The notes: generated from the letters alone by a model not told the origin. A DNA stretch of 64,000 bases from Candidatus Uhrbacteria bacterium (GCA_018673485.1 JABHCP010000007.1:9890-73889); one strand, 5' to 3'; counted from the stretch's first letter, positions 8,409 to 42,063 are shown. Numbers and translations are program-made.

Positions 8409-9848
8409 ATGAACAAAACAAAGGCGCTTGCGCAAAACGCAGCTATACAAATCATTGGTAAAACTGCTGCAACATTATTAGGTGTATTTACAGTTGCGAT
8501 TCTAGCCCGTCACTTGGGCGTTGAAGGCTATGGTCAGTTCACCATCGCGCTTTCGTTTCTTTCTATATTTGCAGTGATTGTCGACTTTGGACTCACGCTC
8601 ACCACAACGCAGATGATCTCAGAAAAAGAAGCAGATGAAGCGACACTGCTTGGAAATCTATTAACACTGCGGATTATCTCAGCAGTAGTGTTCCTGGCCT
8701 TGGCTCCTGTTGTGGCATTGGTATTTCCGTATGATAATGTAATCCAATTAGCAATCGCCATTGGTGCATTCTCATATCTTTTTGGAACTACAGCGCAGAT
8801 GTTTGTTGGCGTGTTCCAAAAACGAATGCTTATGTCGCGTGTCGTAATAGCTGAGCTTGCAAACCGCACCGCTGTACTAATCGGGGTGTTATTCGCACCT
8901 TACTTTGGCTTTGGTGTAGTCGACATTGTTTGGTTGCTCGTAATCGGTAACGCAATTCAATTACTGCTCATGCTTTGGCAGACAAAAGTTCTCGTTGCCT
9001 TCAAACCGAAGCTCAACACCGCAATCTGGAAAAAGATAATCTTACGCAGCTGGCCAATTGGGGCATCCATTTTCTTTAATTTGATCTACCTCAGAGGTGA
9101 TATTGTATTTCTATCAATCTTCCGCGACAATGCCGAGACCGGACTTTACGGAGCGGCATACAAAGTTGTTGATGTGGTTGCTGCAATCCCAGTTATGTAC
9201 ATGGGAATCGCCCTTCCTCTTCTTGTTGCCGCATGGAGCGCGTCGCGAACCAATAGATTCAAAAACTACATGCAAAAGTCTTTCGACTTTTTATCAATTG
9301 CAGCAACGCCAATGATTTTTGGAACAATCGCGCTTGGTGTGCCAATAATGCAACTGGTCGCCGGCATGGAATTCACTGAATCTGGAAGAGTTTTGATGAT
9401 ACTTGGTCCAGCAGCGGCAATCGTATTTTGGAATTCACTTTTTGGACACGCCATCGTTGCACTCAACAAACAAAAAGTCATGACCTGGGGTTATTTAGCA
9501 GTCGCCATCCTGACAGTTGCTGGATACATCTACTTTATACCAATCCACGGCATGTGGGCTGCTGCCTGGCTAACACTTTTCTCTGAAGCTCTCATCGGAA
9601 CGCTGACTTTTGTAGTTGTATGGCGCGTGAGCAAATACTTCCCGTCGCTTAAGATGCTGTCCAAGGCAATTCTTGCGAGCGTTGTAATGTTCATCGTTTT
9701 GGTAATTCTCCCGAATGTACACGTCTTGCTACTAATTCCTCTCGCGATGATCATCTACGTGGCAGCGCTAACCGCGCTTGGTGGACCAAAGCCACAAGAA
9801 GTGTTAAACCTATTCCTACCGGAAAAACCACCTATTAGTCAGCCTTAA
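8409..9848 (+). CDS. polysaccharide biosynthesis protein / Wzx-like oligosaccharide flippase (MOP superfamily)
   Basis: 479 aa, about 12-14 TM segments, N-terminus typical of the PST family. Confidence 0.8.
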   Translation: MNKTKALAQNAAIQIIGKTAATLLGVFTVAILARHLGVEGYGQFTIALSFLSIFAVIVDFGLTLTTTQMISEKEADEATLLGNLLTLRIISAVVFLALAPVVALVFPYDNVIQLAIAIGAFSYLFGTTAQMFVGVFQKRMLMSRVVIAELANRTAVLIGVLFAPYFGFGVVDIVWLLVIGNAIQLLLMLWQTKVLVAFKPKLNTAIWKKIILRSWPIGASIFFNLIYLRGDIVFLSIFRDNAETGLYGAAYKVVDVVAAIPVMYMGIALPLLVAAWSASRTNRFKNYMQKSFDFLSIAATPMIFGTIALGVPIMQLVAGMEFTESGRVLMILGPAAAIVFWNSLFGHAIVALNKQKVMTWGYLAVAILTVAGYIYFIPIHGMWAAAWLTLFSEALIGTLTFVVVWRVSKYFPSLKMLSKAILASVVMFIVLVILPNVHVLLLIPLAMIIYVAALTALGGPKPQEVLNLFLPEKPPISQP

Positions 9849-9853
9849 TTGCC

Positions 9854-9982
9854 TGTCACCCCTGGCTCCGACCAGGGGCCCATCAATTATCGATTCATTG
9901 AGCTTGATGTAACGATGGATCCCCCGCCTACCGGCAGGCAGGCTGCTTTCGACCCGTCTGACGGGTTTCGCAGGAATGACAA
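9854..9982 (+). repeat. about 130-nt structured intergenic repeat (copy 1) carrying a nested CCGG-centred palindromic module
   Basis: near-identical to 62653..62775 apart from a 24-nt insert CCCCCGCCTACCGGCAGGCAGG; compensatory hairpins CCCCTGG/CAGGGG versus CCCGGC/GCCGGG. Confidence 0.6.
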
Positions 9983-9988
9983 AATCAT

Positions 9989-11305
9989 ATGACCACGATT
10001 CTTCTAATCATCCTCTTCATCCTTTTCGCACTTTTAGCCAAGCGTAACCTTAAAGCTGCGCTTATTTTGTTATCTGGACTGTTGCCAATATATCTACTTA
10101 GGATCGAGATTGGACCGATACCCTCAACCACGCTCGAAGTATTGATCTTGATTTGTGCTGTTGCCTGGATCATGAACCTTATCCGTCATCCTGATTCCCA
10201 CACCTCACCATCTCGACGTCTAGGAGAGATCTTCTCAAACAAGAAGACTTCTCACTTCGCTCGAAGTGGGGGCATTAAATGGATTCGACCAACCCTACTA
10301 CTCATTGCCGCAGCTAGTTTCGGGGTCGTCGTTGCACCAGACCTTTTTGGAGCACTTGGAATCTGGAAAGCATACTTCATCGAACCAATTCTCGTTGCAA
10401 TAATGATGCTAACGACCTTTAATCGACGTGACTGGACTCGAGCACTGCAAGCTTTGAGTGTTTCAGCGATCGTACTTTCGATATTCGCCATCGTTCAATA
10501 CTGCACCGGCACCGGAATCCCAACTCCATGGGACATAGAGCTTCGAGTGACAAGCTTTTTCGACTACCCCAACGCACTCGGCCTATTCCTAGCACCAATA
10601 GTGTCATTGAATCTTATCTTGTCATTCCTGCGAAAGCAGGAATCCATCATTTTTCGATCGATCTCGATCGTAACAATCATCCTCGGCCTCACAGCAATCA
10701 TCCTCTCCCAAACCGAAGCAGCACTCGTTGCCATCCCAGCCGCCGTGATAATCACACTACTCATTTCAGAAATTTCAAAAAAATCTAAAGTTATTCTACT
10801 GGTCCTATCGGTCCTACTGGTCGCATGCTCACTACTCATCCCTACAGTCCGCGAAAAACTAACCCTCCAAGACTACTCAGGACAAGTTCGAATCTCACAA
10901 TGGACTGAAACGCTCGAGCTCATTAAAGACAAACCATTCTTTGGCGCTGGACTAAACGGATACCCAACAGCGCTCACGCCATATCACAACTCAACACTCT
11001 ACGAAATCTTCCAGTACCCTCACAACATAATCCTAAACACCTGGACCGAACTCGGACTCCTCGGCCTAATCGCATTATTCTGGTTTGCATATCTAATCCT
11101 AAAACAAACCATCTCGACGCCCAGGAGAGATTCTCTCAAGAAGACTTCTCCTGACGTCGAAGTGGGTATACTACAACTCGCCCTCTTTGCAGCACTCCTC
11201 ACGATCCTCATCCACGGCCTGGTCGATGTCCCCTATTTCAAAAACGACCTTGCAGTCATGACATGGATACTGTTCGCTGGATACATCGCCATTAAAAGAA
11301 AATGA
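9989..11305 (+). CDS. O-antigen ligase/polymerase family membrane protein (Wzy_C domain)
   Basis: 438 aa polytopic protein; C-terminal block GAGLNGYPTALTPYHNS...HNIILNTWTELGLLGLI typical of Wzy_C. Confidence 0.75.
   Translation: MTTILLIILFILFALLAKRNLKAALILLSGLLPIYLLRIEIGPIPSTTLEVLILICAVAWIMNLIRHPDSHTSPSRRLGEIFSNKKTSHFARSGGIKWIRPTLLLIAAASFGVVVAPDLFGALGIWKAYFIEPILVAIMMLTTFNRRDWTRALQALSVSAIVLSIFAIVQYCTGTGIPTPWDIELRVTSFFDYPNALGLFLAPIVSLNLILSFLRKQESIIFRSISIVTIILGLTAIILSQTEAALVAIPAAVIITLLISEISKKSKVILLVLSVLLVACSLLIPTVREKLTLQDYSGQVRISQWTETLELIKDKPFFGAGLNGYPTALTPYHNSTLYEIFQYPHNIILNTWTELGLLGLIALFWFAYLILKQTISTPRRDSLKKTSPDVEVGILQLALFAALLTILIHGLVDVPYFKNDLAVMTWILFAGYIAIKRK
10208..10270 (-). mobile_element. 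63-bp MITE-like GC-rich element inserted in frame in the O-antigen ligase ORF
   Basis: imperfect TIRs CCCACTTCGA / TCGAGATGG; internal half 28/29 identical to the intergenic copy at 3082..3110; encodes the extra peptide SPSRRLGEIFSNKKTSHFARSGG. Confidence 0.5.
11109..11166 (-). mobile_element. 58-bp MITE-like element, second in-frame copy in the same ORF
   Basis: same termini and internal GAGAAGTCTTCTTG core as 10208..10270; encodes TPRRDSLKKTSPDVEVG. Confidence 0.5.
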
Positions 11306-13824: not shown

Positions 13825-13933
13825 ACTGAAATACTGAACGAACATAAAACGACCTGTGCAGAGCATGGGTCGTTTTCGCTTCCACCACGCAGAGCACTTT
13901 GATATAATAAAACCACTTAAACCCCCAAATTTT

Positions 13934-14803
13934 ATGCAAAAAATACGAAAAGTTGTGATTCCGGTTGCGGGCTATGGAACTCGATTCCTGCCTGTTACCA
14001 AGGCTATGCCAAAAGAGATGATGCCGATTATCGATAAACCTGTTATTCAGTATGTTGTTGAGGAGGCGGTTGATAGCGGTATTACTGATATTGTTCTTGT
14101 GACTGGTGCCTCCAAGCGTGCTGTAGAGGATCATTTTGACTACAATCACGACCTACAGAACTGGCTGAAAAAACAAGGAAAAAATGAAATGCGTGAGCGA
14201 GTGAAGAAAATCGCAGACATGGCGAACTTTACATATATTCGTCAGAAGGGTCCGTATGGAAACGGAACTCCGGTATTAAACGCTGAGCACGTCATCGGTG
14301 ATGAACCGTTTGCAGTAGTATGGGGTGATGAGTTTTTCACGGGAGGTAAGAAACCTCGACTCAAACAACTATTAGACGTATACGAAAAATATCAAGACCC
14401 AGTTCTCACAGGAATGCGAGTGGGAAAAGAAGGCACCGATAGGTTTGGAATAGTCGATCCAGTTGCCGAGGTTCAAAAGGATGTATGGGAAATCAAAGGA
14501 ATCGTAGAGAAGCCAGGACCAAAGAAAGCAAAATCAAAAATTGCGGCAATGGGTGGATACATTCTGCCGCCTGAAATCTTCGAAATCCTCAAAAAGACAA
14601 AACGAGGTAAGGGTGGTGAGGTTTGGCTCGCTGACGCAATAGCGGTACTTGGAAAAACACGGCCAATGTACATCAAGATTGTCGATGGAGCTTACCGGGA
14701 TACTGGAACAAAGGAAGCATGGCTTAAGACAAACATCGCTTTGGCACTCGAGGATAAAGCGCTCAAGACTGAGATGCGGAAATATATAAAATCTCTTCTC
14801 TAA
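13934..14803 (+). CDS. galU: UTP-glucose-1-phosphate uridylyltransferase
   Basis: KVVIPVAGYGTRFLPVTKAMPKEMMPIIDKPVIQYVVEE N-terminal motif; the likely start is the internal Met MQKIRK. Confidence 0.85.
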   Translation: MQKIRKVVIPVAGYGTRFLPVTKAMPKEMMPIIDKPVIQYVVEEAVDSGITDIVLVTGASKRAVEDHFDYNHDLQNWLKKQGKNEMRERVKKIADMANFTYIRQKGPYGNGTPVLNAEHVIGDEPFAVVWGDEFFTGGKKPRLKQLLDVYEKYQDPVLTGMRVGKEGTDRFGIVDPVAEVQKDVWEIKGIVEKPGPKKAKSKIAAMGGYILPPEIFEILKKTKRGKGGEVWLADAIAVLGKTRPMYIKIVDGAYRDTGTKEAWLKTNIALALEDKALKTEMRKYIKSLL

Positions 14804-14811
14804 TAACTTTT

Positions 14812-16200
14812 ATGAAAAAACTTTCCATCCTACTTCTGTTTACACTGCTTGTTACAGTGGGGGCAGGATGCACAGGAGGCACCAGCACCGCCTCATTTGA
14901 TGATATCGACATTGTTATCTGGCGTGTTTTTGACGACGACGATACGTTCGACGCAATTATCGACAACTACCGAGCGCTGCATCCAAATATAAGCGTTGAA
15001 TATAAGAAATTGCGCTACGACGAATACGAAGACGAGTTAATCCAGGCCTTTGCAGAAGGCCGTGGACCAGATGTGCTGTCATTGCACAACACGTGGTTGC
15101 CAGACTACCAAGTCTTACTCGAACCAATGCCAAGCTCAACAACCGTTTCCTACTTAGAGACCCAGGGGACACTGCGTAAAGAAACTGTTGTCGTGTCGCG
15201 CACCACAAATACAATGAGCATGCGCGAGCTTGAAAGTTCATTCGTCGAGCAGGTCGCAGAAGATGTTGTTTTGGACTACCAAATCGATCCAGATATTGAT
15301 CCAGTTGAAAAAATCTACGGTCTACCAATGGCTATGGATACAATGACACTTTTTTACAACAAGGATTTACTAAATGCAGCTGGTATCGCGACACCACCGT
15401 CAACTTGGAGCGAATTTCAAGATGACATTATTGCGCTTACCACCTATGACAGTGATGGCAATGTGGACCAGTCAGGTGCGGCTATCGGAACATCTGATAA
15501 TGTAGAGAGAGCTGCTGATATTCTCTCACTCCTTATGATGCAAAATGGAACAGAGATGACAGATGAGCGTGGGCGTGTGTACTTCCACGAGATTCCAAAG
15601 GACTCTCCAGAGGGAGTATACCCAGGATATGACGCCACTAGCTTTTACACTGACTTTGCAAATCCAACTAAGGAAGTTTACACATGGAATGATAACTTTG
15701 ACAGCTCATACGAAAGCTTCGCAAACGGAGAGACAGCAATGTTCTTTGGCTATAGTTACCATATTCCCCTATTGCAAGCTGCGGCACCAAAACTCAACTA
15801 TGCAATCGCGCAGGCTCCACAGATCTCTGGTGGACGCGAGGTAAACTTTGCAAACTACTGGGTGGAGTGCGTAGCTGCTGCATCAGAGAATCCAGAATGG
15901 GCGTGGAACTTCATTCTATTTGCCACTGACGAGGATCAAGTTATCAACTATCTTGACGAGGCTCAAAAGCCAACTGCACTACGTAATTTAATTGGCGGTC
16001 AACTGGACCACTCATTGCTAGGTGCATTTGCCGAGCAAATCCTGACGGCGCAAAGCTGGTACCACGGATATGACGCAGCTGTTACAGAAGACGTATTCGG
16101 TGACTTGATCGATACGATACTAGCCGGCACAGACGATCCAGAAAATGCAATGAACAGTGCGGCATCAAGAATATCTGACACTTACAACAAGAGCGATTAG
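14812..16200 (+). CDS. ABC transporter extracellular solute-binding lipoprotein (family 1, sugar-type)
   Basis: lipoprotein signal LLVTVGAGC; SBP_bac_1-like sequence; 462 aa. Confidence 0.8.
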   Translation: MKKLSILLLFTLLVTVGAGCTGGTSTASFDDIDIVIWRVFDDDDTFDAIIDNYRALHPNISVEYKKLRYDEYEDELIQAFAEGRGPDVLSLHNTWLPDYQVLLEPMPSSTTVSYLETQGTLRKETVVVSRTTNTMSMRELESSFVEQVAEDVVLDYQIDPDIDPVEKIYGLPMAMDTMTLFYNKDLLNAAGIATPPSTWSEFQDDIIALTTYDSDGNVDQSGAAIGTSDNVERAADILSLLMMQNGTEMTDERGRVYFHEIPKDSPEGVYPGYDATSFYTDFANPTKEVYTWNDNFDSSYESFANGETAMFFGYSYHIPLLQAAAPKLNYAIAQAPQISGGREVNFANYWVECVAAASENPEWAWNFILFATDEDQVINYLDEAQKPTALRNLIGGQLDHSLLGAFAEQILTAQSWYHGYDAAVTEDVFGDLIDTILAGTDDPENAMNSAASRISDTYNKSD

Positions 16201-17621: not shown

Positions 17622-18272
17622 CTACTCCCCCTCGAGGATGTCTGTGAGGACTTCCTCGGCTGAGTCAGCACGCGCCTGCTGGGCGTCGGCCTCCTTTTGG
17701 GCCTTCTCGCGTTGCAGCTTCAGTGCCTCGATTTGGCTTGCTTGCCGTTGCGTCGTCGCTTCGAGCTCTGCGGCCTCAGCCTCGGCTGCGGCCTGGAGTT
17801 GTTGCGCACCCTGGACCTCAGTACTACGACCATCGGCCCACATCTGAGTAGAGATAATCGACGCTTCGCTGTCGATGATCTGCAAATCGCGTGTGAGCAT
17901 CGGCGGAAGATAGGCACCATACGGATCGTGATACTGATCGTACAGACTGTAGTACTGATCGTACGGATCGCTATACATGTCAGGAGGCGGCGGCACATAG
18001 GTCGGGCCAACCTGAAGGTGGAGACCTCCGCGCACGCGCGGGGTGGAACCACGGTTGTACGCTCGGCGGCGGCTCGGCTCGATCTGCACGTGCAACTGAG
18101 CGGACTGTCCGCTGCACTGGTACCAGCCGTCGCTGTTGCGATAGTCAGGCACCTGGATGGTGCGCATGTCCACGCAATTGCCGTTGCGGTAATCGTAGCA
18201 GACCTGCTTGCAGGAATCTGCGTAGGCGGGGTTCAGGCTCATGGTGAGAACGAGGGCGATCAGGAAGTTCAT
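17622..18272 (-). CDS. secreted hypothetical protein with C-terminal coiled coil in a high-GC island
   Basis: start taken at MNFLIALVLTMSLNPAYA (signal peptide); Cys-rich N-terminal part; Q/A/E-rich coiled coil. Confidence 0.5.
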   Translation of the reverse strand: MNFLIALVLTMSLNPAYADSCKQVCYDYRNGNCVDMRTIQVPDYRNSDGWYQCSGQSAQLHVQIEPSRRRAYNRGSTPRVRGGLHLQVGPTYVPPPPDMYSDPYDQYYSLYDQYHDPYGAYLPPMLTRDLQIIDSEASIISTQMWADGRSTEVQGAQQLQAAAEAEAAELEATTQRQASQIEALKLQREKAQKEADAQQARADSAEEVLTDILEGE

Positions 18273-18542: not shown

Positions 18543-20165
18543 ATGTCACCACCGATCACAAAAGCAGAAGTTCTAGCAACGTTTGGCGATGTTGGCTTTG
18601 CCACGATCCGTGAGCAACTGCAAAGCGCAATCGGCAACAGCGATGTCTCCCTCCTCTTGAACCAAACCGGCCTTCGCGCAAAGCTAGCCAAAGCGGCCAT
18701 GGAGCATCCGCAAGGTGCTGCTGTTGGCATTGATGTTTTGACAACTCTTGTTGGCAGAATGGCCAGCCACTACAACCCCTTGCTTGGAAAGACAGTTGAT
18801 GAGCTGGGTGAAGGTGTAGCCTACGGGCTCCGTGATCTAGCTCAAGAAGCTCGAAATGGCACAGCTATCACCGCTGGCAACGTCGAAACTGCCCTGCAAC
18901 AGGCTGACAAAACCATGGCGGTCATCAAAGAACAGCGCAGCGCAAAACTCGCTGAACTCCATGTTGGGCAGCGTCGCGCATTCTTTGCCCTTCTGCTCGC
19001 CAGCCGAGAAGAAGAGCACTTTGACAATACGCCCGCTTGGGCGCTTGACCCGCTTGCAGCACGCCGAAGGCGCCATGGCCAACGTGGATTCCGCGGACTC
19101 GAAGGTCGCGCGTTTCAGACTGAGGCTGGACTGCTCTGGTTGCTCGAAACCGACATCGAAATGCTCAAGCAAGTCCTGCCAAGCGACAAGAGCTTTGACC
19201 AGGTGTACTACTACCCTTCGCGCTGCTGCCAAGAGGCAATCACCGCGGCTACGACCTGCAAGTCTATGCCAATGCAAAAGGCGCTTGACGTCATCGACCT
19301 GATGGTCGACAAAGAAGACCTCAAGCAAAGAGCTGGCAGAACTGCTGGTTGGATCCTAGACACTGCGCGCAGTGCGGCAACCACTGCTCTGATCGCTTAT
19401 CCAGTGTTCATGATCGTCATGTTCGCGCTCTTCTTTACCGCAGCAATCATCTTCTTGGTATGCCACGCAACGCTCCTATTTGCCCCCACTGCGCCGACCT
19501 GGGCTGTTGTAACGATAATCCTGGCCTACCTTGCCTTGCTGCTCTTCCGCTACACATTTACGTTGGTGGACACATTCCATGCCTTTGTTGGCTGGCTTGT
19601 GCAACGGCTTGATGTGACGCGTGAAGATGCGCTCGTAGGCACGATCGCACGTGGCCTCTTGGGCATCTTTGGTAAAGAAGACTTGCTCAAACAGACTCCG
19701 CGTGGAGAAAAGAGGGAATACTCATGGGCAGTCCACTTTGCTGGAACGGCGTTCATCGCCGCAACAGCACTTGCCGCCCTGACCGTACTCCACTACTTTA
19801 TGGGACGAGGTATTGGCCCAGCGTTCATCATCATCCTCACAGAGCTCCTCATCCTCCTAGCAGTTGAGCTCCCACGACGAATGTCAGCCCTGATCCCGCA
19901 TAGCGACAAGATCCAGGACGCCCGTTGGATGCGGAAATGGGTGACGCGTGGTGCTGTAACACTCATCGTTCTGACGGCCATCATCTCGATTGTGGGCTGG
20001 AACACTACCAGCTGGCTCGTGAGCCAAGTTCGCTCAGAACAGGTCACGAATCCAGCCGAAGCTGGTGCTCCAGAGCACAGCTCACCTAAGCTCGAGCGCG
20101 CCTGCGCGCACTGTCGCGAACACGATGGTTGCAGCGACGTGCTCAAGGCCAAGTGTGGTCTCTAG
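18543..20165 (+). CDS. hypothetical membrane protein (soluble N-terminal domain plus about 6 TM) in a high-GC island
   Basis: 540 aa; promoter-like TTGACA-17-TAAATT upstream at about 18435. Confidence 0.55.
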   Translation: MSPPITKAEVLATFGDVGFATIREQLQSAIGNSDVSLLLNQTGLRAKLAKAAMEHPQGAAVGIDVLTTLVGRMASHYNPLLGKTVDELGEGVAYGLRDLAQEARNGTAITAGNVETALQQADKTMAVIKEQRSAKLAELHVGQRRAFFALLLASREEEHFDNTPAWALDPLAARRRRHGQRGFRGLEGRAFQTEAGLLWLLETDIEMLKQVLPSDKSFDQVYYYPSRCCQEAITAATTCKSMPMQKALDVIDLMVDKEDLKQRAGRTAGWILDTARSAATTALIAYPVFMIVMFALFFTAAIIFLVCHATLLFAPTAPTWAVVTIILAYLALLLFRYTFTLVDTFHAFVGWLVQRLDVTREDALVGTIARGLLGIFGKEDLLKQTPRGEKREYSWAVHFAGTAFIAATALAALTVLHYFMGRGIGPAFIIILTELLILLAVELPRRMSALIPHSDKIQDARWMRKWVTRGAVTLIVLTAIISIVGWNTTSWLVSQVRSEQVTNPAEAGAPEHSSPKLERACAHCREHDGCSDVLKAKCGL

Positions 20166-20345: not shown

Positions 20346-20385
20346 CAAAAAAACCCCCGAGGTTAGTCAGGGGTTTTCTTTTCTT
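20346..20385 (-). terminator. intrinsic terminator of the pilin-like array
   Basis: A-run, CCCCCGAGG...CAGGGG hairpin, T-run directly 3' of 20394..20774. Confidence 0.6.
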
Positions 20386-20393
20386 CTTTTTTG

Positions 20394-20774
20394 CTAACCA
20401 GCGAGGCCTGCAGTGGTCAGTGACGTAATCACGAAGTTTGAAATCGCGTACGCTGCCAAAAGGATAATTAATCCGATTACAGCATTGATCATGATGTCCT
20501 TTGCCTTTTGAGTCTTGTCTGACTCACCACCGGCTGTCATCCACAAGAATCCTGCGTAGATAACAAGAACTAGCAAGATGATTCCCAATAGAGTAAGGAA
20601 AACTTTGATCAGGTCTCCGATCGTCGCGGCAAGTGGCTCGTCTGAGAACTCTGCAGCTAAAGCTGCACTATCAAGCTCAGTACTAATGTCCTGTGCGTGA
20701 ACTGGTGCTGCAAGCATTGGAACTGACAACAGTCCGATTGCGAGCAATGCGCCTAGTTTTTTGAGATATCCCAT
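20394..20774 (-). CDS. TrbC/VirB2-family pilin-like protein (paralog 1)
   Basis: Sec signal ending AHAQ; two C-terminal TM helices with the loop IYAGFLWMTAGGESDKTQKAKD. Confidence 0.7.
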   Translation of the reverse strand: MGYLKKLGALLAIGLLSVPMLAAPVHAQDISTELDSAALAAEFSDEPLAATIGDLIKVFLTLLGIILLVLVIYAGFLWMTAGGESDKTQKAKDIMINAVIGLIILLAAYAISNFVITSLTTAGLAG

Positions 20775-20836
20775 AGTAATAAATTAATAACTCTTTTAAT
20801 TAGTAATCTTATTTTAACATTTTTTGTAATCCTACG

Positions 20837-21190
20837 CTATATAGCCAACTGTATAGAATCGATAACGAAATTCGAAATTGCATACGCTGCCAATAGGATA
20901 ATTAGTCCAATCACGGCATTGATCATGAAATCTTTTGCCTTCTTAGTCTTATCCGTCTCACCACCAGCTGTCATCCACAGGAATCCTGCGTAGATCATTA
21001 TCAACAATAATATTATACCGAGTATCGAAAGCGCAACACCGATTATACCACCAATCATTACTGGCAAAGTAGCCTCTGAGAACCCGACTTGACCCTGCGC
21101 ATCGTCAACTTGGCTAGTGAAATCAAGCGCCCAAACAGTCACGGGGCTCGCCAGCACCAAACAAACAATTGAAAAAACTAACTTCTTCAT
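20837..21190 (-). CDS. TrbC/VirB2-family pilin-like protein (paralog 2)
   Basis: start taken at MKKLVFS; IYAGFLWMTAGGETDKTKKAKD loop. Confidence 0.7.
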   Translation of the reverse strand: MKKLVFSIVCLVLASPVTVWALDFTSQVDDAQGQVGFSEATLPVMIGGIIGVALSILGIILLLIMIYAGFLWMTAGGETDKTKKAKDFMINAVIGLIILLAAYAISNFVIDSIQLAI

Positions 21191-21555
21191 AATGATGGGG
21201 CGTTGAGCGCTGTAAAGATGTATGTCGTAATGGCGTATGCTGCTGTGATAATTATTACACCGATCACAGCACGAATCATTAAGTCTTTTGCTTTTTGAAC
21301 TTGATCGGAGGCTCCACCGGCTGTCATCCATAGGAATCCCGCGTATACCATCAGTACCAAAAAGATCAGACCAACGAGCGCTAATGCTGGGGTAATAATC
21401 TTAGTTCCAACCCATTGACCAAGAGTTTGATCAAGAGTTCCATAAACCTCGGCACCTGTAGCATCCAAGCCAGTTTCGGATGGATCTAGCTGCGCAAAGA
21501 CAAGTGTGGGGCCAAGAAGCAGCGCAACGGCTGCAAGGGCGATGTATTTTCGCAT
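21187..21555 (-). CDS. TrbC/VirB2-family pilin-like protein (paralog 3)
   Basis: start taken at MRKYIAL; VYAGFLWMTAGGASDQVQKAKD loop. Confidence 0.7.
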   Translation of the reverse strand: MRKYIALAAVALLLGPTLVFAQLDPSETGLDATGAEVYGTLDQTLGQWVGTKIITPALALVGLIFLVLMVYAGFLWMTAGGASDQVQKAKDLMIRAVIGVIIITAAYAITTYIFTALNAPSL

Positions 21556-21601
21556 AGCCAAGTGCCAGCACGTATGTGCTGGCAAAAGGTCATAAGAAAA
21601 T

Positions 21602-22006
21602 TTAACCAGCTGAGGCGGTAATCACGGAATCGATCACAAAACTTGTAATCGCAAACGCTGACAAGATAATCGCCAGTCCGATAACACCAGCAATTAAGAG
21701 TCGTTTCGCTTCCGAGACTTTGTCTTCGTTTCCACTTGCTGTCATCCACTTAAATCCACCCAAGAGAACCATTACTACTGCAATAATTCCAAGGAATCCA
21801 AGGAAAACGCGAATAAGATTCCCAATAGTCTCTTTTAGGTTGGCTTGTCCGAGCCCTGAACTATCTGAAAAATCGTCATCAAAGAAATCTGAAGTATCAA
21901 GTTGCTGTGCGTGAGCAACAGGAACGTTTGTAGCGAAAGTCATTGTTCCCAACAGAGGGATCGCTACTAAGAAACTAAGTGCGAATAGTGATAGCGCTTT
22001 TGTCAT
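21602..22006 (-). CDS. TrbC/VirB2-family pilin-like protein (paralog 4)
   Basis: signal peptide; LLGGFKWMTASGNEDKVSEAKR loop. Confidence 0.65.
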   Translation of the reverse strand: MTKALSLFALSFLVAIPLLGTMTFATNVPVAHAQQLDTSDFFDDDFSDSSGLGQANLKETIGNLIRVFLGFLGIIAVVMVLLGGFKWMTASGNEDKVSEAKRLLIAGVIGLAIILSAFAITSFVIDSVITASAG

Positions 22007-22058
22007 AGTGTTTTATGATTAATAATATTAAATAGTTGAATCGCTCGATTATATCTCG

Positions 22059-22126
22059 CTTGTTGAAGATGTTTAAGTTGTTTATTTCAGAGTAAACACT
22101 TTAAACACCTTCAACAATTTAAACAT
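22059..22126. promoter_or_regulatory. conserved upstream element, copy 2
   Basis: shares the GTTTAYTTCRGARTAAACACTTTAAACA core with 16841..16889. Confidence 0.5.
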
Positions 22127-22132
22127 CAGCTC

Positions 22133-22468
22133 TTAGACGCTTCCAGTCAGAACTGCGCTGAAGATTGCGTCTGTTAAAACATACGCTCCAGCAATCAGGA
22201 TGATCCCCAGAGTCGCCCAAACCAAAATGTCCTTTCCCTTTTTCACCTGATCTCCTTTTCCCATGTCTGTAAGCCACAGGATGCCACCATATACAAACAT
22301 CAGAAGCGCCAATGTTCCGGCAACGGACAATGCGCCGCTAATAACTGTTCCGATGATCACTCGTACATCGTTCTCACCCAAAGGATTAGTAAGAGTGACC
22401 TGAGCTTGTGCTATATATGGCATAGCCAGCGCTCCTACACTCACGATAATAGCCTTAATCTTTTTCAT
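22133..22468 (-). CDS. TrbC/VirB2-family pilin-like protein (paralog 5)
   Basis: signal peptide AQAQ; VYGGILWLTDMGKGDQVKKGKD loop. Confidence 0.65.
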   Translation of the reverse strand: MKKIKAIIVSVGALAMPYIAQAQVTLTNPLGENDVRVIIGTVISGALSVAGTLALLMFVYGGILWLTDMGKGDQVKKGKDILVWATLGIILIAGAYVLTDAIFSAVLTGSV

Positions 22469-22491
22469 AGAAATATTATATCAAGATTTTT

Positions 22492-22992
22492 CTATTGCGT
22501 CTGAATGATATCCGCAGCCCCGGCGCCATCTACTGCATTATCGATTGTATCTTCAATATCCGTCGTTGGAATCTCTCCAGTTGTAATAACAGAAACGACA
22601 ACGTTAATAACGGCATATGCACCCATAATAATCGCCAATCCCACCAAGGCTCCGATAATCGCCTTCTTTCCTTCGTCCACCATTCCAGCTTCACCATGGG
22701 CTAGAATCCACTTCATACCTCCATAAACTAAAATGAACATCATCACAGAACCAGTGATTCCAAAGATGAAAACGCTCAAATTAACTAAAAGCTGCATCAT
22801 GTCCTCGAGCGTACACTTACCATGGTCTCTGCATTCGCACGCTGCACTCGCGCTTGAACAAATACCGGCAAAGATAAGTCCCTGATCTTGAATCTCGGCA
22901 TACCTACCTGCGATTGATTGAGCCTGAACACTAGGCACAAAAACACCCAGCATCGCAAAGGACAATAAAAATGTTAATGCATACTTTTTCAT
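22492..22992 (-). CDS. TrbC/VirB2-family pilin-like protein with Cys-rich insert (paralog 6)
   Basis: signal peptide VQAQ; CSSASAACECRDHGKC insert; VYGGMKWILAHGEAGMVDEGKK loop. Confidence 0.6.
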   Translation of the reverse strand: MKKYALTFLLSFAMLGVFVPSVQAQSIAGRYAEIQDQGLIFAGICSSASAACECRDHGKCTLEDMMQLLVNLSVFIFGITGSVMMFILVYGGMKWILAHGEAGMVDEGKKAIIGALVGLAIIMGAYAVINVVVSVITTGEIPTTDIEDTIDNAVDGAGAADIIQTQ

Positions 22993-23084
22993 ACGGTATT
23001 ATTATAACACGGAGTATGCAGTAGGCGGTATACAGCCGTGCCCGCCCGAAGCCCAGAGGGCGAAGGAGGGTGCTCAGTGCATAA

Positions 23085-23114
23085 ATCAAAAAACCGGCGT
23101 CTACCGGTTCTTTT
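23085..23114. terminator. bidirectional intrinsic terminator
   Basis: A6-ACCGG-CGTCTA-CCGGT-T4 directly 3' of pgi. Confidence 0.6.
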
Positions 23115-23123
23115 AATGTTCGA

Positions 23124-32407: not shown

Positions 32408-33148
32408 CTACTTTTCTTCTGAGTTGCGCTCAAAAGCCTCATCCTGCAAAAACGTTATCATGGTTCGATATGTTTCCTCACTACTCATACCAGATTCTGC
32501 CAATCGTTTAAATTCATTAAACACCATCTTTGCATCAGCCTCATTTTTTCCTATTTTTTTGATGGAATAATGAAGATCGGAAGGTTTAAAATCTGCAGCT
32601 TCTTGCTGGGTAAGAACAGATGGCTCCAAGCCATGCCATACTATGGTGTAGTTATTCAGAGAATCATCCCAAGCTACACCAGCATCTACCTCCCCTATCC
32701 GAAATCTATCCGAGAATTTCTCAGACTCACTCTCTACGACATCCTCCTCATCAAAACTCGCCATACTCTTTGCTTCTTCAAAAATTGCCTCTGCCTCTGG
32801 TTTATAATACTGGCCCTCTTCGTCCAAAAATGCATTTGCGGCTTCTTGAAGGTTTGCAAGCAATTCTCTCCAATCCAATCCATTAATCGTCTCGGGGTCC
32901 GCCTCGCCAAGCTCAATAAGAGCCCTCTCCACAGTCACCAAACCTGGATTATACGGATCAATCTCTCCAATGCGCTCAGCAAAACGTGCGACAGCCATAA
33001 CCTGAGCCCCCTCCCTAATACCACGTGCCATATTCTCGACCTTCTTCAAATCCAGCGCCTTTTTTTTCTCGGCATCTCTTTTCTCTATCCCTTTTTCTCG
33101 ACCGCTTCTGACCATATCAAGCGCAAAATTCTTTTTTCCATCTACCAT
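32408..33148 (-). CDS. hypothetical acidic protein (246 aa)
   Basis: long ORF; the opposite-strand ORF 32570..33346 looks spurious. Confidence 0.5.
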   Translation of the reverse strand: MVDGKKNFALDMVRSGREKGIEKRDAEKKKALDLKKVENMARGIREGAQVMAVARFAERIGEIDPYNPGLVTVERALIELGEADPETINGLDWRELLANLQEAANAFLDEEGQYYKPEAEAIFEEAKSMASFDEEDVVESESEKFSDRFRIGEVDAGVAWDDSLNNYTIVWHGLEPSVLTQQEAADFKPSDLHYSIKKIGKNEADAKMVFNEFKRLAESGMSSEETYRTMITFLQDEAFERNSEEK

Positions 33149-33177
33149 ATAATTTTATTTAAAAATATAATTTTAAT

Positions 33178-34056
33178 TTACTCAACAATCAACACTCCCA
33201 TCATGTCCCAGTCTTCGTCTGCTCGGAAGTTGTACTCTCCTGGTTCGAGGTCAATGGTTAGAACGATAATCTCTTCTGGCTCTATTTTTCCTGTTGTAAA
33301 TAAATTATCGTCTGACTCTCGAACAGTTAGTGTTTCTGATGTGTAATTTACAAATTTTATAGTACCTCCTTGAGAGACAGTGAGTACGTTGTACCCGCAA
33401 TATGACTCTGTGCAGTTGTCTCCGTCGTCCTCAAGATCGTCGTCCTCGTCGATTGCTGCAAAACGTAGTGGGTCCTCGTACATCATAACTCCTGTAGCAC
33501 TAAACAAGTCTATGCTGTCTGAAATCGTGTAATCATTAAGGTCAATGAAGATTACATCATCGGCCAACACACCAGACAACACCGTATAATGCGGAATAAA
33601 CTCATTTGGAAGCATGTCTACAAGCCCTGTCCAGTCTTCACCAAACATTGCGTTGGCGTTGTCTACATTCTTAACTGCAGCGAGCATATTACTACCAACT
33701 GGAACATAAACTTCCGATCCTGTTGAGAGCTTTAAGAGTCTTGTGGTTGCGCCCTCGTTTCCAAGTTGTGGCCTGTAAGTTACCATTCCACTAAAGGCAA
33801 TCATGTCCATTTCAGAAACCGCTATTGTTTGTACTGAATTGAAATCATCGTACCAAGTGAAAAATGTAGCTTCGTTTGGAAATCCGTAACGCAGCTCGTC
33901 ATTACCAAAATAATAAACTGTGCTCGATGCCGCACTCTTAATAAGTGTTCCTGGTTCGATATCTGCCACTGTTGGGAACTCAAGTGCAGCTGACGCTGGC
34001 ATTGCGATCATCGCACTAACCGCAACTATCGCCAATGATAATATAATCTTTTTCAT
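33178..34056 (-). CDS. secreted hypothetical protein
   Basis: signal peptide MKKIILSLAIVAVSAMIAMPASA; 292 aa. Confidence 0.55.
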   Translation of the reverse strand: MKKIILSLAIVAVSAMIAMPASAALEFPTVADIEPGTLIKSAASSTVYYFGNDELRYGFPNEATFFTWYDDFNSVQTIAVSEMDMIAFSGMVTYRPQLGNEGATTRLLKLSTGSEVYVPVGSNMLAAVKNVDNANAMFGEDWTGLVDMLPNEFIPHYTVLSGVLADDVIFIDLNDYTISDSIDLFSATGVMMYEDPLRFAAIDEDDDLEDDGDNCTESYCGYNVLTVSQGGTIKFVNYTSETLTVRESDDNLFTTGKIEPEEIIVLTIDLEPGEYNFRADEDWDMMGVLIVE

Positions 34057-34073
34057 AAATATTCGCTTTATTT

Positions 34074-34619
34074 TTACTCTGTTAACGTTACTACTTCTGC
34101 ACTTAGAATCACATCTTGAGCATCATCCATGTCCCGCCCCTGCTGCCAAACCATGAACTGATATTTTGAGTCTTCTGTGACAAAGTAGTAATCATAGTTA
34201 AGTCTACCAGCGATCTGACACTCATCTCCATCTTCACAAAGCTTCAAACGATAAAACCCGTCACCAAGGTCTTCGGACTCTGATGGAATAACTCGACGCT
34301 CATCAAGCTTCAACGCTCGGATATATGTGAAATCATCCATATTGACATCACCAAGGGCTTGGAACGCCTCTGTCTCTGGCATGTAACCTGAGCTTGAATA
34401 GACGTTTGCTGATGTACTTTGAAGTACAATGTCAGAAATCTCGCGAGAAACGCCCTCCTCAATTGGTACCGGCTCACTATCAAGCTGATACTGACGAACC
34501 GTCACCCATTCGTTTGGCAAATCAAATGCCAAAAACCAATCTCCCTCTACAGCGGTACTTGGCATACACCCAGCACCCAACAGAACTAGAGCAAATAACC
34601 CTAAAAATACTTTTTTCAT
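34074..34619 (-). CDS. hypothetical lipoprotein
   Basis: lipobox LLGAGC. Confidence 0.55.
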   Translation of the reverse strand: MKKVFLGLFALVLLGAGCMPSTAVEGDWFLAFDLPNEWVTVRQYQLDSEPVPIEEGVSREISDIVLQSTSANVYSSSGYMPETEAFQALGDVNMDDFTYIRALKLDERRVIPSESEDLGDGFYRLKLCEDGDECQIAGRLNYDYYFVTEDSKYQFMVWQQGRDMDDAQDVILSAEVVTLTE

Positions 34620-34784
34620 ATATATTGTTTATTACTGAGTACATCTTAGCATTTCATGTTAAACAAAAAAAGACCCACACCACACCCATCCCGACGTAAG
34701 GAGGGATCCCTCGGCATACGCCTCGGGATGGAGGGAATGGTGGACTAAACAAAAAATCCCGCCACATGGCGAGATTTTTTTATT

Positions 34785-35312
34785 TTATTGGTTTGGGTAA
34801 ACCTCGATATTAATGTTTTGATATCCGAACTCGATAGCGTCATCATACTCTTCCATCCAAATATCTACTCGCTCCCAATATCTAGAGTTCATACGATCCT
34901 CAACGATAAAAATATCATCACCATAGATTTCAGGAATTTTTACGCGCGTACCAATGGGTAAAAAGTTTGCCGCTAGCACTCCGTGTCGTGTAGTTGTTCC
35001 GGATGCGGTAATAAATGGAGTATCGTCAGTCTGCCATGGAAGTGAATTGTAGGCTGTTGCCGGCACCGTAATGGTGTAGGCTGGTCCTCGCAAGTCAGAC
35101 GCAGGCAACTCTCCATACTTTCGGAAGTTGTTCTGGATTGCGTCTATTTCAAGCGCCAATGCTTGATTAGTGTAATCCAGGTCCACACTTGCTGAGGCTT
35201 CAATTGGTAAAACAACATAGGCCAATGCAAAAGTTATAAGTCCAATTAATGCACACTCGATCGGAGACTTTTTAGTTACTTTTATAACCTCCTTAAGAGA
35301 TATGTATTTCAT
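34785..35312 (-). CDS. 3D-domain (MltA-like) cell-wall protein
   Basis: C-terminal GTRVKIP...FIVEDRMNSRY...VDIWM resembles the 3D domain; N-terminal TM anchor. Confidence 0.6.
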   Translation of the reverse strand: MKYISLKEVIKVTKKSPIECALIGLITFALAYVVLPIEASASVDLDYTNQALALEIDAIQNNFRKYGELPASDLRGPAYTITVPATAYNSLPWQTDDTPFITASGTTTRHGVLAANFLPIGTRVKIPEIYGDDIFIVEDRMNSRYWERVDIWMEEYDDAIEFGYQNINIEVYPNQ

Positions 35313-38565: not shown

Positions 38566-38574
38566 CACAAATAA

Positions 38575-38608
38575 ATAAAACCACCTCGAGTTAATCGGGG
38601 TGGTTTTT
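38575..38608. terminator. bidirectional intrinsic terminator
   Basis: A4-ACCACC...GGTGGT-T6 between convergent PBP1A and dnaN. Confidence 0.65.
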
Positions 38609-38659
38609 TAATCTTTTTCTTTTCTGCCCCTCGACAAGCTCGGGATATTCGCTGCGTTA

Positions 38660-39781
38660 CTACTGACGGATCGGCATTACTATGTAGATGAACTTTTCTG
38701 CGTTTTCTCCGTGTGGGGCAAGGACGAATGGGCTGGCGGGGTCGATCATTTTTATCTCGACTTCGTCTGAATTCATTGCGTTTAGTCCGTCGAGAACATA
38801 TCGATAGTTAAGTGCCATTGTGTTTTCTTTTCCTTCTATTTCACATTTGAGATCAACATCGTTCTTTCCGCGTGTTGCGTCTTGTGCGAATAATGTAAGT
38901 GCTCCGTCTGGCTTTGCGCTCATCTTAATATCATAAAGCCCTTGTTTGGCAAACAAACTAACGCTTTTAATAGCTTGGATGAGGTCGCGACGTCCAACAA
39001 CGACCTTGGTTTCGTGCTTGTCTGGAATAATTTGGCGGTAGTCTGGGTACACTCCTTCGATAGTTCTGGATATTAACTCAACAGACGCGTAACGGAAGAC
39101 TACTTGATTGTTCGCAAGCTCCATTGTAACGCTCTGTGAGGCCTCCACGTCGTCTTTAAACACAGAGAAGACCCTACTTAGCTCAGAGAGTGTTCTCTGC
39201 GGCACAATGACTTCATACTCCTGTTCTCTCGATGGTGTTTTAATCTCAACTTCTGACAATCTGTAACTATCCGTTGCTGCCATTATCAGCTTCTCGTCCT
39301 TGAACTTCATGTAAACTCCGGTGAGTTCTGGGCGCGCCTCGTTCATCGCGGTTGCAAATAAAGTTTGTGCTAGCGCTTTCTTAAAATCAGATACGTTAAC
39401 TTCAAACTTAACTTCTCCCTCTACTGGTGGAATAAGCGGAAACTCTGCTGGTGAGATTCCGTTAATCGTTGTCTTTGCCTTAGCGCAAGAAACAAACAAA
39501 CCATCATCGTGAAGATCCATATTAACAACATCGTCTGGCAGTAAACTTACAAACTCATAAAAGAGTTTTGATGGAACTGTGTATTCACCTTGTTGTTCTA
39601 GTTTCCCCCGAACAGAACAAGTAAGTGCAATCTCAAGATTTGTTGATATTAATTTAAGTCCTCCTTGGTCAGCCTTAAGTAGAACATTGTTAAGTATTGG
39701 CAAGTTAACATTCTTCGTACTTATATGGCTTGTTATTGAGAGCCCCTGAGAAAGGTTCTCTTTTGTGCATGATAGTTTCAT
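38660..39781 (-). CDS. dnaN: DNA polymerase III beta sliding clamp
   Basis: MKLSCTKENLSQGL...NLPILNNVLL N-terminus; 373 aa; immediately downstream of dnaA. Confidence 0.9.
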   Translation of the reverse strand: MKLSCTKENLSQGLSITSHISTKNVNLPILNNVLLKADQGGLKLISTNLEIALTCSVRGKLEQQGEYTVPSKLFYEFVSLLPDDVVNMDLHDDGLFVSCAKAKTTINGISPAEFPLIPPVEGEVKFEVNVSDFKKALAQTLFATAMNEARPELTGVYMKFKDEKLIMAATDSYRLSEVEIKTPSREQEYEVIVPQRTLSELSRVFSVFKDDVEASQSVTMELANNQVVFRYASVELISRTIEGVYPDYRQIIPDKHETKVVVGRRDLIQAIKSVSLFAKQGLYDIKMSAKPDGALTLFAQDATRGKNDVDLKCEIEGKENTMALNYRYVLDGLNAMNSDEVEIKMIDPASPFVLAPHGENAEKFIYIVMPIRQ

Positions 39782-40055
39782 GGGACTTATTATTATATTA
39801 TTAAGTTAAATATATTTATATAAATAATAGTAGTAATAGGGGGTGTGGACAGTGTGTAAAACTCCAGTTTATGTTTTACATTGGTGGCGTTTACTTGTGT
39901 ACGAACAGGGATCTACTGTGAGGGAACCGGTGAGTTTATTGTGGATTACTTTTCGTGATTTTTTCAGCCTGTTGTTGTGCACATATTGTACTCAGGCTCG
40001 CTCACAGGAAAACACATAGTTGTTCACGTGCGGTGCACAGTCTACCCACAGAATT
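39782..40055. promoter_or_regulatory. putative oriC segment (AT-rich DUE plus degenerate DnaA boxes)
   Basis: 53-nt run of more than 90% AT at 39786..39838; TGTGGATTA at 39940 and TGTGGACAG at 39845. Confidence 0.45.
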
Positions 40056-41462
<1,407 letters not shown>

Positions 41463-41689
41463 AAAGCAATGGGGGTAAGAACGGATCTTTACAAAATTCG
41501 TGACCTGTTGATTTATGAGTCCCATATACCAACACCTCATCGAATTTTAGAAAGATCAGATTTTATATCTCTCAGTCGACGCTGTGAATAATATATCAGA
41601 TATCCACAGGTAGCAAGTACCAATAAAATCGTATAAATGTGCAAAAGTTGTGGATATGGTGTGTGGAACTGTACCTTTATCCCCGATTC

Positions 41690-41718
41690 TTGACAAAATA
41701 CCGTATAGTTAGTATAGT
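41690..41718 (+). promoter_or_regulatory. sigma70-type promoter of rpmH (TTGACA-17-TATAGT)
   Basis: consensus hexamers about 57 nt upstream of the rpmH ATG; near-consensus DnaA boxes at 41600 and 41649. Confidence 0.5.
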
Positions 41719-41774
41719 TTCGACACTTTGACTAATATGTTGTTGATCAAATCAATGACAGTAATAACTAAGTT

Positions 41775-41927
41775 ATGCCGAAGAGGACATACCAACCAAA
41801 AAAGCGGCGCCGTGCTCGAAAACACGGATTTCGAAAGCGAATGCTCACGAAGACCGGACGCGCAGTACTAAAACGCCGACGAGCCAGAGGACGAAAGCGA
41901 CTTACAGTTGCAGCCCGAATGGCTTAA
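41775..41927 (+). CDS. rpmH: 50S ribosomal protein L34
   Basis: hand translation [50 protein letters not shown]; below the ORF-track length cutoff. Confidence 0.85.
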
Positions 41928-41963
41928 AAGAAAAGCGACTCAGCAATGAGCCGTTTTTTCTTT

Positions 41964-42021
41964 TAGTAGATCCCCTGCCTACCGGCAGGCAGGCTCGACT
42001 CCCTTCGGTCGCTCAGGATGA
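41964..42021 (+). repeat. modular GC-rich repeat containing the CCGG-centred palindromic module
   Basis: TAGTAGATCCCCTGCCTACCGGCAGGCAGG... shares the module with 9918..9944. Confidence 0.5.
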
Positions 42022-42063
42022 CAACATTGTATATTTACTGTTGTCACTTTATACTGACACCGT

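Follow-up and report, generated by a model that had tools for sequence, protein, structure and literature searches.

A tandem array of six small genes in a 64,000-nucleotide stretch of DNA from a Candidatus Uhrbacteria bacterium (GCA_018673485.1, JABHCP010000007.1:9890-73889; "the window" below means this whole stretch) probably encodes a fixed, vertically inherited set of pilins of a type IV secretion system (T4SS)-like apparatus of Patescibacteria, which would be exported, assembled with the help of VirB4/TrsD and used in contact with a host cell. The six consecutive open reading frames (ORFs) were confirmed on the minus strand at 20394-22992 and are numbered W1 to W6 in transcription order. 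Profile comparisons of the sequences support their membership in the VirB2/TrbC-like pilin family, and the paralogs appear to be ancient, position-specific orthologues that are conserved across about 20 related species.

An initial annotation of the stretch had described the region as six consecutive minus-strand genes for small exported proteins, and this description stands, with lengths of 111-166 amino acids after correction of two starts. The six genes are contiguous, with gaps of -4 to 126 nt between them. W1 (22492-22992, 166 amino acids) is the first gene, which had been listed as "paralog 6", and consists of a signal peptide ending in VQA|Q, a Cys-rich N-terminal region with the motif CX6CXCX5C, a helical hairpin and an acidic C-terminal tail. 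The Cys-rich insert described for it is indeed present, and its four Cys occur in W1 alone among the six. W2 (22133-22468, 111 amino acids) is the shortest paralog, with the predicted mature N-terminus QVTLTNPLGE, while in W3 (21602-22006, 134 amino acids) a long signal region (AHA|Q) is followed by an N-terminal stretch of acidic character and then by a conserved GLG before the hairpin. The stop of W4 (21187-21555, 122 amino acids in the public gene call, VFA|Q) overlaps the start of W5 by 4 nt. W5 (20837-21190, 117 amino acids, VWA|L) and W6 (20394-20774, 126 amino acids, VHA|Q), the last gene, are core-type pilins, and W6 is the nearest of the six to the family consensus. Read as longest ORFs, W4 and W5 would have 132 and 164 amino acids, both extending upstream into the preceding gene; in agreement with public gene calls, and in view of where the signal peptides lie, we place both starts at internal ATGs.

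In a rule-based reading all six proteins begin with a basic and hydrophobic signal-like segment and carry [A/V]-x-A at residues 21-33. The Q that the initial annotation placed after every cleavage site follows in five of the six, W5 having L at this position. Past the signal lies a region of 12-37 residues that differs between the paralogs, and then two long hydrophobic segments with a polar turn between them. This hairpin is common to all six, but the loop motif FLWMTAGGxxDKxxKAKD, which had been presented as conserved throughout, is exact in W5 and W6 only, deviates by one residue in W4 (DQ) and is degenerate in W1-W3. Pairwise identity of the six paralogs is 22-58% with a mean of 35%; taken separately, the identity is 5-32% for the N-terminal regions and 22-71% for the hairpins, the highest value being that of W5 and W6. 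The AlphaFold2 model of W6 (pLDDT 82.6) places helices at residues 48-79 and 85-121, with pLDDT values of 89-98 for the hairpin itself, and the less confident model of W1 (pLDDT 70) places the hairpin helices at 62-96 and 102-138. An identical W6 protein is encoded on 16 public contigs named Candidatus Uhrbacteria; one of these proteins is HN358_02880, on a 158.6-kb contig of a metagenome-assembled genome (MAG).

All six proteins match the Pfam family PF18895 (T4SS_pilin) above its gathering threshold of 26.6 bits (W1 29.1, W2 27.8, W3 40.2, W4 31.1, W5 35.0 and W6 41.3 bits), and six such matches in tandem are far beyond chance. The NCBIfam model NF045849, with a cutoff of 40 bits, is marginally exceeded by W6 (41.2), W5 (40.5) and W3 (40.4); W4 reaches 20.6 bits, and W1 and W2 gave no match. 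A search with W6 against 5.8 billion proteins returned 115 homologues, nearly all with PF18895. Those with a named source belong to Candidatus Uhrbacteria, Falkowbacteria, Buchananbacteria and unclassified "Patescibacteria group bacterium", and several are called "pilin" by NCBI. PF18895 matches all of the 113 homologues that were aligned, and PF04956 (TrbC/VirB2) also matches 32 of these, with a best E-value of 1.4e-7. The family is large, since 82,773 of 1.84 billion cluster representatives match it at E <= 0.001.

For a direct comparison, seven genuine VirB2/TrbC genes of conjugative MPF_T plasmids were aligned as a reference set; each of them lies between a gene for a VirB1-type transglycosylase, or another T4SS gene, and virB3. 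Alignment of the family profile with this set by hhalign gave a probability of 85.3% and an E-value of 6e-6 over 59 colinear columns spanning the hairpin, with the family residues G-F-L-W-M aligned to G-I-S-W-M of VirB2, and the six window proteins alone gave 63.6% and 6.8e-5. The assignment to a TrbC/VirB2-like family made in the initial annotation is thus borne out by both PF18895 and the profile alignment. The AxA|Q signal peptidase site is invariant in the seven reference proteins, and a site of this type is found in five of the six window proteins. The likeness to the Gram-negative pilins of PF04956, such as Agrobacterium VirB2 and plasmid pilins, extends to the two helices and to G-x-x-W-M at the end of helix 1. 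However, the leader of the window proteins is 21-33 residues long compared with about 47 in VirB2/TrbC, the turn between the helices is seven residues longer in the window family and rich in lysine, and the window proteins have an additional paralog-specific N-terminal region. Furthermore, virB1 and virB3, which flank the references, do not adjoin the window genes, there are six copies instead of one, and the host is monoderm. The Mycoplasma protein Mbov_0395 (NF045849), a pilin-like conjugal transfer protein of an integrative and conjugative element, resembles them as a small two-helix pilin-like protein of a monoderm T4SS, but the window genes are multicopy and located on a core chromosome, and W1 and W2 are not matched by its model. 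A tblastn search with W6 against 72,556 plasmids gave no match and hence no direct tie to annotated conjugative plasmids. None of the six proteins carries the prepilin-peptidase motif G|[FM]-[ST]-[LI]-[IVL]-E within its first 45 residues, and none has a match to a Pfam family of type IV pili. A PDB sequence search with the family profile returned designed "Pizza" repeats alone, a chance repeated match of 19 residues, and no significant single domain.

The relatives of the array indicate how the six genes are related to one another. When 79 related loci from species-representative genomes were scanned with a local hidden Markov model, 53 distinct loci were found to carry arrays of 4-12 small pilin genes, with six as the most frequent number (20 loci). 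In a positional comparison with 23 six-gene arrays from other genomes, 20 of them distinct, the best match lay at the same array position in 21 of the 23 arrays for W1 and likewise for W2, and in 20 of the 23 for W3 and for W4. The best matches of W5 and W6 swap between positions 5 and 6. Larger arrays have genes like W1-W4 at the front and additional copies resembling W5 and W6. Identity to the positional orthologues, given for the N-terminal region and the hairpin, is 0.44 and 0.44 for W1, 0.69 and 0.54 for W2, 0.47 and 0.66 for W3, 0.37 and 0.51 for W4, 0.26 and 0.53 for W5, and 0.28 and 0.59 for W6. In W1-W3 the N-terminal region thus shows roughly the same conservation as the hairpin, that of W4 is less conserved, and those of W5 and W6 drift between species, which is compatible with host adaptation at the species level. 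In 16 homologues of W1, down to 46% identity, the four Cys, Y31, G38, IFA, RD and G58 are invariant and the acidic tail is conserved. If W1-W4 are specialised subunits with conserved ectodomains, W1 with its Cys-knot-like motif would be the best example. The mature N-terminus of W2 is strongly conserved among its orthologues.

Within one population the array hardly varies. Metagenome contigs from five independent assemblies each cover part of the array (W2/W3 to W6) and there share 99.98-100% of their DNA sequence with it, with 0-1 single-nucleotide polymorphism in about 4-6 kb overlapping the array. The ratio of nonsynonymous to synonymous divergence (omega) relative to the closest relatives is 0.02-0.58 where dS is defined, and 0.02-0.13 in the defined comparisons of N-terminal regions and hairpins with the closest relative; since dS is saturated or undefined in most segments, the usable result is qualitative, namely an omega well below 1 where it is defined. 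A single value of 2.0 (N-terminus of W6 compared with locus L007; 19 codons, dN 4.2) is a saturation artefact and was rejected as a sign of selection. The initial annotation had put forward dN/dS across the paralogs as a check; the values relative to the closest relative, where measurable, speak against diversification. Because of the conservation of the orthologues, the identity within the population and an omega far below 1, specialised fixed subunits are favoured over a cassette for antigenic variation. The initial annotation had taken the differences between the exposed regions as a sign of antigenic or host-range diversification. This is mostly not supported and over-interpreted the sequences: the N-terminal regions of W1-W3, and to a lesser degree that of W4, are conserved among orthologues, and it is the drift of W5 and W6 between species that would agree with host adaptation.

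Multi-pilin arrays are already described for Patescibacteria. A preprint of 2018 noted in Saccharibacteria, including TM7x, an array of 4-6 small proteins with signal peptides and a relationship to VirB2 (bioRxiv 10.1101/258137), and the predicted pilin subunits of the T4SS cluster of Southlakia epibionticum, which has a six-pilin array, are essential (PMC10633639). In this Saccharibacteria prototype the array is embedded in the T4SS cluster SEML1_0006-0019 (PMC12102498). Quinonero-Coronel et al. (2025) applied PF18895 and PF04956 to 3,035 genomes and reported 441 arrays in 383 assemblies, with 2-11 pilin genes, a mean identity of 25% and a maximum of 54%; an array is defined there as at least two VirB2-like genes of low mutual identity, in tandem or separated by one non-pilin gene (PMC12102498). 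With six contiguous genes and its mean identity of 35%, the window array fits this definition. It shares with the published arrays (PMC12102498; PMC10633639; PMC12857230; bioRxiv 10.1101/258137) the tandem arrangement of small VirB2-like genes with signal peptides, divergent in sequence and alike in structure, the detection by PF18895, the six copies found in Southlakia epibionticum ML1, a monoderm host of the candidate phyla radiation, a chromosomal location and the lack of a relaxase context. In contrast to the arrays of Saccharibacteria and Southlakia, it lies outside any T4SS cluster, between the PGI gene and surface-glycan genes, and both its mean identity and its maximum of 58% are somewhat higher than the published values.

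With regard to the machinery, VirB4 was found in 2,417 of the 3,035 assemblies of Patescibacteria, and sampled rows of Table S1 list it for 17 of 18 ABY1 genomes (PMC12102498); the genome table of the same work places Uhrbacteria in the class ABY1 of GTDB. In Table S3, VirB2 arrays of Uhrbacteria (e.g. CDS 324-327 and 397-400) are located far from VirB4/TrsD (CDS 100 and 649-650) and are marked "VirB4 proximity: No" (PMC12102498). As the published tables show this unlinked layout, the absence of an ATPase gene near the window array is normal for Uhrbacteria. Positional orthology of the pilins and a link of the arrays to galU and a sugar-binding lipoprotein are not reported in the portions of the Patescibacteria pilin-array literature covered here.

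The latter link emerged from the surroundings of the related arrays. An SBP_bac_1-type gene lies directly upstream on the same strand in 33 of the 53 loci, or in 36 if over-extended ORFs are allowed, and inside the array in six further loci, while six loci are cut by a contig end. The junction of this gene with the array is often a 4-nt overlap, and galU usually stands ahead of it (e.g. L007, 5213-7479). In the window, galU (13856-14803, plus strand; TIGR01099 7e-91, 304.3 bits, just under the cutoff of 326.8 bits) precedes the SBP_bac_1-type gene for a sugar-binding lipoprotein (14812-16200, plus strand; Pfam SBP_bac_1 2e-25). Its translation carries a signal with the lipobox VGAG|C and shows weak similarity to the MalE/GanS sugar binders, and no permease or ATPase gene stands beside it. 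The array lies 4.2 kb away. In the sub-lineage of the window (window, L006, L030 and L045) the array follows PGI, and the lipoprotein gene is found 2.4-4.2 kb downstream on the other strand; L079 has the same layout with PGI upstream and no lipoprotein gene on its contig. In this sub-lineage the array has been relocated and inverted away from the galU-lipoprotein pair. The recurrent neighbourhood may reflect a functional link between the pilin array and the lipoprotein.

The pilin module also occurs in other architectures. A second type of locus in ABY1 encodes pairs of proteins, one of 570-900 and then one of 1,400-3,300 amino acids, each opening with a complete pilin module (PF18895), and these giant fusion proteins continue into adhesin-type domains (Big_5, TIG, DUF4215, VWA, fn3). 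Examples are L029 (8119-9990 and 9881-19225), L062 (6208-8070 and 8063-17938), L075, L043, L047, L066, L067 and L085; loci of this type often lie near the genes for signal peptidase I and HisRS, and none is present in the 64-kb window. Other relatives are single polypeptides with 2-17 tandem hairpin modules, one N-terminal signal peptide and no internal ones, namely P0137, P0140 and P0142 with six modules each, P0139, P0144, and P0147 with 17. The single signal fits an out-in-out topology for each predicted hairpin. A strict hexamer, considered in view of the six genes and the six-hairpin chains, was rejected because the arrays have 4-12 genes and the fused chains 2-17 modules.

We infer the assembly and function of W1-W6 as follows. 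Each precursor would be exported by the Sec pathway and cleaved by signal peptidase I. The mature protein would form a membrane hairpin whose two ends face outward and whose lysine-rich turn faces the inside of the cell. The hairpins would then be extracted from the membrane and built into a pilus or conduit by a VirB4/TrsD(/VirB3) machine whose genes lie elsewhere in the genome. W5, W6 and the additional copies in larger arrays would be the bulk subunits, whose outward-facing N-termini drift between species, while W1-W4 would be low-copy specialised subunits with conserved ectodomains that act in initiation or as tip, base or adaptor. In Southlakia the array of six pilins is essential, and by analogy the structure would probably mediate contact with a host cell or uptake from it. 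Minor-pilin operons such as fimU-pilVWXE and gspGHIJK, known from type IV pili and type II secretion systems, likewise encode ordered sets of small paralogs built on a common hydrophobic assembly module, some as bulk subunits and others as low-copy specialists. The likeness to these operons, an ordered set of distinct members with differing exposed parts, would be one of function and not of homology; these pilins belong to another fold family with different processing, and W1-W6 lack the G|F-T-L-I-E motif and have a signal of the Sec/signal peptidase I type.

A number of observations weigh against this proposal. Among the ORFs of the 64-kb window none encodes VirB4, VirD4, VirB6, VirB3, VirB8 or TrsD, as judged from a Pfam scan and from the existing Pfam annotation of public gene calls, which between them cover nearly all ORFs of at least 100 amino acids; the initial annotation had likewise seen no T4SS ATPase here. 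No T4SS gene is annotated in the 10 kb past the 3' end of the window, and VirB4, VirB6, VirB3 and TrsD were not found within 10 kb on either side of any of about 50 related arrays. Due to this lack of nearby machinery, the link to a T4SS in the Uhrbacteria source genome derives from literature priors only. In another passage of the published survey VirB4 is listed in 6 of 11 Uhrbacteria and 5 of the 11 are listed without it (PMC12102498). PF04956, the model by which the initial annotation had proposed to verify the family, matches none of the six window proteins at E <= 0.1, although it does match part of the homologues, and the hydrophobic composition of the helices may inflate profile scores. 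Comparison of the AlphaFold2 model with PDB by Foldseek had a best E-value of 0.7, which is uninformative for a two-helix protein, and the matches were generic helical hairpins such as histidine-kinase DHp domains, CnrX and ATP synthase subunit c. As searches of solved structures were uninformative, the assignment is supported by profiles and not confirmed by structure. The division into major and minor subunits is suggested by patterns of conservation. Filaments of PF18895-type proteins have been seen in no Patescibacterium. Finally, a simple pilus model does not predict the near-universal operon link with an orphan solute-binding lipoprotein, and the same holds for the chains of 2-17 hairpins, which are hard to fit to a helical packing with one hairpin per subunit.

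Some of these observations would be explained if the six proteins formed a membrane or display complex that is independent of any T4SS, either as a hetero-oligomer or as anchors for short or very large ectodomains, acting together with the lipoprotein in the recognition of host glycans or the capture of nutrients. The lipoprotein gene at the arrays without adjoining permease or ATPase genes, the lack of a VirB4 gene within 10 kb of any array, the multi-hairpin chains and the fusion of a complete pilin module to proteins of 600-3,300 amino acids with Big_5, TIG, VWA and fn3 domains are all in line with this idea, and a fixed set of distinct paralogs suggests a defined stoichiometry. We nevertheless consider such a complex unlikely. 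The proteins are homologous to VirB2/TrbC, the Saccharibacteria array is located inside a T4SS cluster and is essential together with it, and VirB4 is present in most ABY1 genomes. The variable array size precludes a stoichiometry that is fixed for the whole class, and operon neighbourhood alone is no proof, the more so as the array in the window lineage parted from the lipoprotein gene without being lost. A related idea, to which we give a rather low probability, is that the VirB2 fold was repurposed in ABY1 as a general module for membrane assembly and display and is no longer a conventional T4SS pilus subunit. About six hairpin proteins may then form an obligate heteromeric structure of the envelope for host-surface recognition or nutrient capture, which may have been co-transcribed ancestrally with galU and the orphan lipoprotein and may be genetically uncoupled from virB4; the hairpin module may in addition anchor the giant adhesins and occur in single-chain multi-hairpin proteins.

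The diversification proposed in the initial annotation, in which a hypervariable exposed region would provide antigenic variation or a switchable host range of a surface filament, is in our view improbable. It agrees with the fact that the N-terminal region, which is predicted to be extracellular, is the least similar part of the paralogs (identity 0.05-0.32 compared with 0.22-0.71 for the hairpin), that the N-terminal regions of W5 and W6 reach identities of only 0.26-0.28 between species and that larger arrays grow by copies of these two, and pilin versatility has been suggested to help in the adaptation to different host strains (PMC12102498). Bartonella and Anaplasma phagocytophilum, too, are host-dependent bacteria with tandemly amplified and divergent virB2 genes (cited in PMC12102498). 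However, those arrays are read as tools for antigenic variation or host range, while the window paralogs are old, fixed in position, under purifying selection and without variation in the population. The array position and N-terminal motifs of W1-W4 are kept across about 20 species, including the invariant Cys motif of W1, and neither the near-identity of the five metagenome assemblies nor the low omega is expected of such a cassette. Repeats, invertible elements or silent cassettes were not noticed at the locus, although no dedicated search for repeats or inverted repeats was made. The proteins could also be generic two-helix membrane proteins (holin-like, oxidase-subunit-like or fragments of transporters) that match PF18895 through their hydrophobic composition. 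Many members indeed have weak matches to Cyt_bd_oxida_II, DctQ, DUF898 and FixQ, and no structural match to solved pilins was obtained. This explanation is hardly credible, because all matches to unrelated families, including holin-like ones, stay below the gathering thresholds while PF18895 is above its threshold in every aligned homologue. The conserved non-hydrophobic residues (G, W, the T-A-G-G turn and K-A-K) align with the VirB2 signature, NF045849 is exceeded just above its cutoff by three of the six, and in Saccharibacteria the family is linked to T4SS genes by its genomic neighbourhood. We therefore retain the reading of W1-W6 as a fixed pilin set of a T4SS-like apparatus.

The sequence around the genes gives some indications of how the array may be transcribed. 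A GC-rich, terminator-like hairpin with a T-run lies at 20347..20380 on the minus strand, 14 nt past the stop of W6, so that one terminator common to the array, as had been suggested near position 20346, is plausible from this consensus scan, which gives a pattern match only. In the intergenic region between PGI and W1 (22993..23123, minus strand) a second terminator-like hairpin closes PGI at about 23092-23109. A TGnTATAAT-type -10 element (TATAAT at 23006..23001) ends 8 nt before the ATG of W1 and another one (22469-22483, minus strand) 6 nt before the ATG of W2, both again as pattern matches only. No Shine-Dalgarno sequence was recognisable ahead of any of W1-W6 when the sequence was read for it. 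These features hint at leaderless transcripts or transcripts with very short leaders, and at more than one promoter in the array.

The window as a whole is ordinary core chromosome of Candidatus Uhrbacteria, class ABY1, with genes for RuvB, a penicillin-binding protein, DnaN, DnaA, RnpA, trigger factor, an H+-pyrophosphatase, PNPase, an Fe-S cluster assembly set, PGI and surface-polysaccharide synthesis. The cumulative GC skew has its minimum at about 36-38 kb, and together with dnaN (38660-39781, minus strand), dnaA (40056-41540, minus strand) and rnpA (42064-42408, plus strand) the likely region of the replication origin is 36000-42500. Based on the skew minimum, the array lies about 17 kb from the likely origin, and it is likewise about 17 kb from dnaA. 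According to the published survey, T4SS genes are located near dnaA in several classes (PMC12102498). The array is neighboured by PGI on the upstream side and on the other side by a convergent gene for a hypothetical membrane protein of 540 amino acids (18543-20165, plus strand), the N-terminal half of which is soluble and is followed by about seven hydrophobic segments and a C-terminal tail rich in Cys. Most of this gene falls within a block at 18-20 kb with 54.7% GC, compared with about 45% in most of the window. The protein was considered as a VirB6-like component and rejected; it has no match in Pfam or NCBIfam and five homologues, of which the named ones are from Uhrbacteria and Parcubacteria, and the closest complete genome has a very divergent version or another gene in its place. 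In about 1.3 Mb of flanks of the related loci, scanned for large ORFs with a Walker A motif and for recurrent gene clusters, the candidates included HisRS, signal peptidase I, LytR-CpsA-Psr, EngA, YebC and DUF2079, and no T4SS gene was among them.

One of the metagenome contigs of this population, L002, matches the window at 100% identity across both the array and the 540-residue gene, but at L002 3983-4596, compared with about 17630-18244 in the window, it ceases to align inside the adjacent hypothetical gene of 239 amino acids, which suggests a structural variant or an assembly break. At 8409-11305 on the plus strand the window carries Polysacc_synt flippase-like and Wzy_C/O-antigen-ligase-like genes, and in about 20 relatives such genes recur within a few kb of the arrays. 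The Wzy_C protein weakly matches the O-linking oligosaccharyltransferase TfpM with an E-value of 4e-6 and 26 bits, far below the cutoff of 600 bits, and O-glycosylation of the pilins is a speculative thought. Several consecutive genes near the origin at 32408-35312 (minus strand; 246, 292, 181 and 175 amino acids) and a gene for a 399-residue protein at 56244-57443 (minus strand) belong to no Pfam family. Many TPA MAGs that carry typical Patescibacteria pilin arrays (L009, L011, L012 and others) are titled "uncultured Gammaproteobacteria bacterium", and others are labelled Acutalibacteraceae, Lysobacteraceae or Kapaibacterium; these labels look like placeholders or mis-binning and are unfit as taxonomy.

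Patescibacteria are a large and mostly uncultured branch of bacteria that apparently live on other cells, and the multi-pilin T4SS-like system is among the few machineries shown to be essential in the one genetically manipulable member. The window does not add a new kind of system, but a clean example of such an array from a different class, ABY1/Uhrbacteria. The ordered paralog set with its paralog-specific ectodomains favours models of specialised subunits over antigenic variation. The array in ABY1, unlinked from virB4 and apparently descended from an operon with galU and an orphan sugar-binding lipoprotein, provides a testable functional lead. The pilin module is, in addition, reused in giant adhesin fusions and multi-hairpin chains. 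In structural work on the T4SS of Patescibacteria, these comparative points could guide the choice of subunits for tagging, depletion and modelling.

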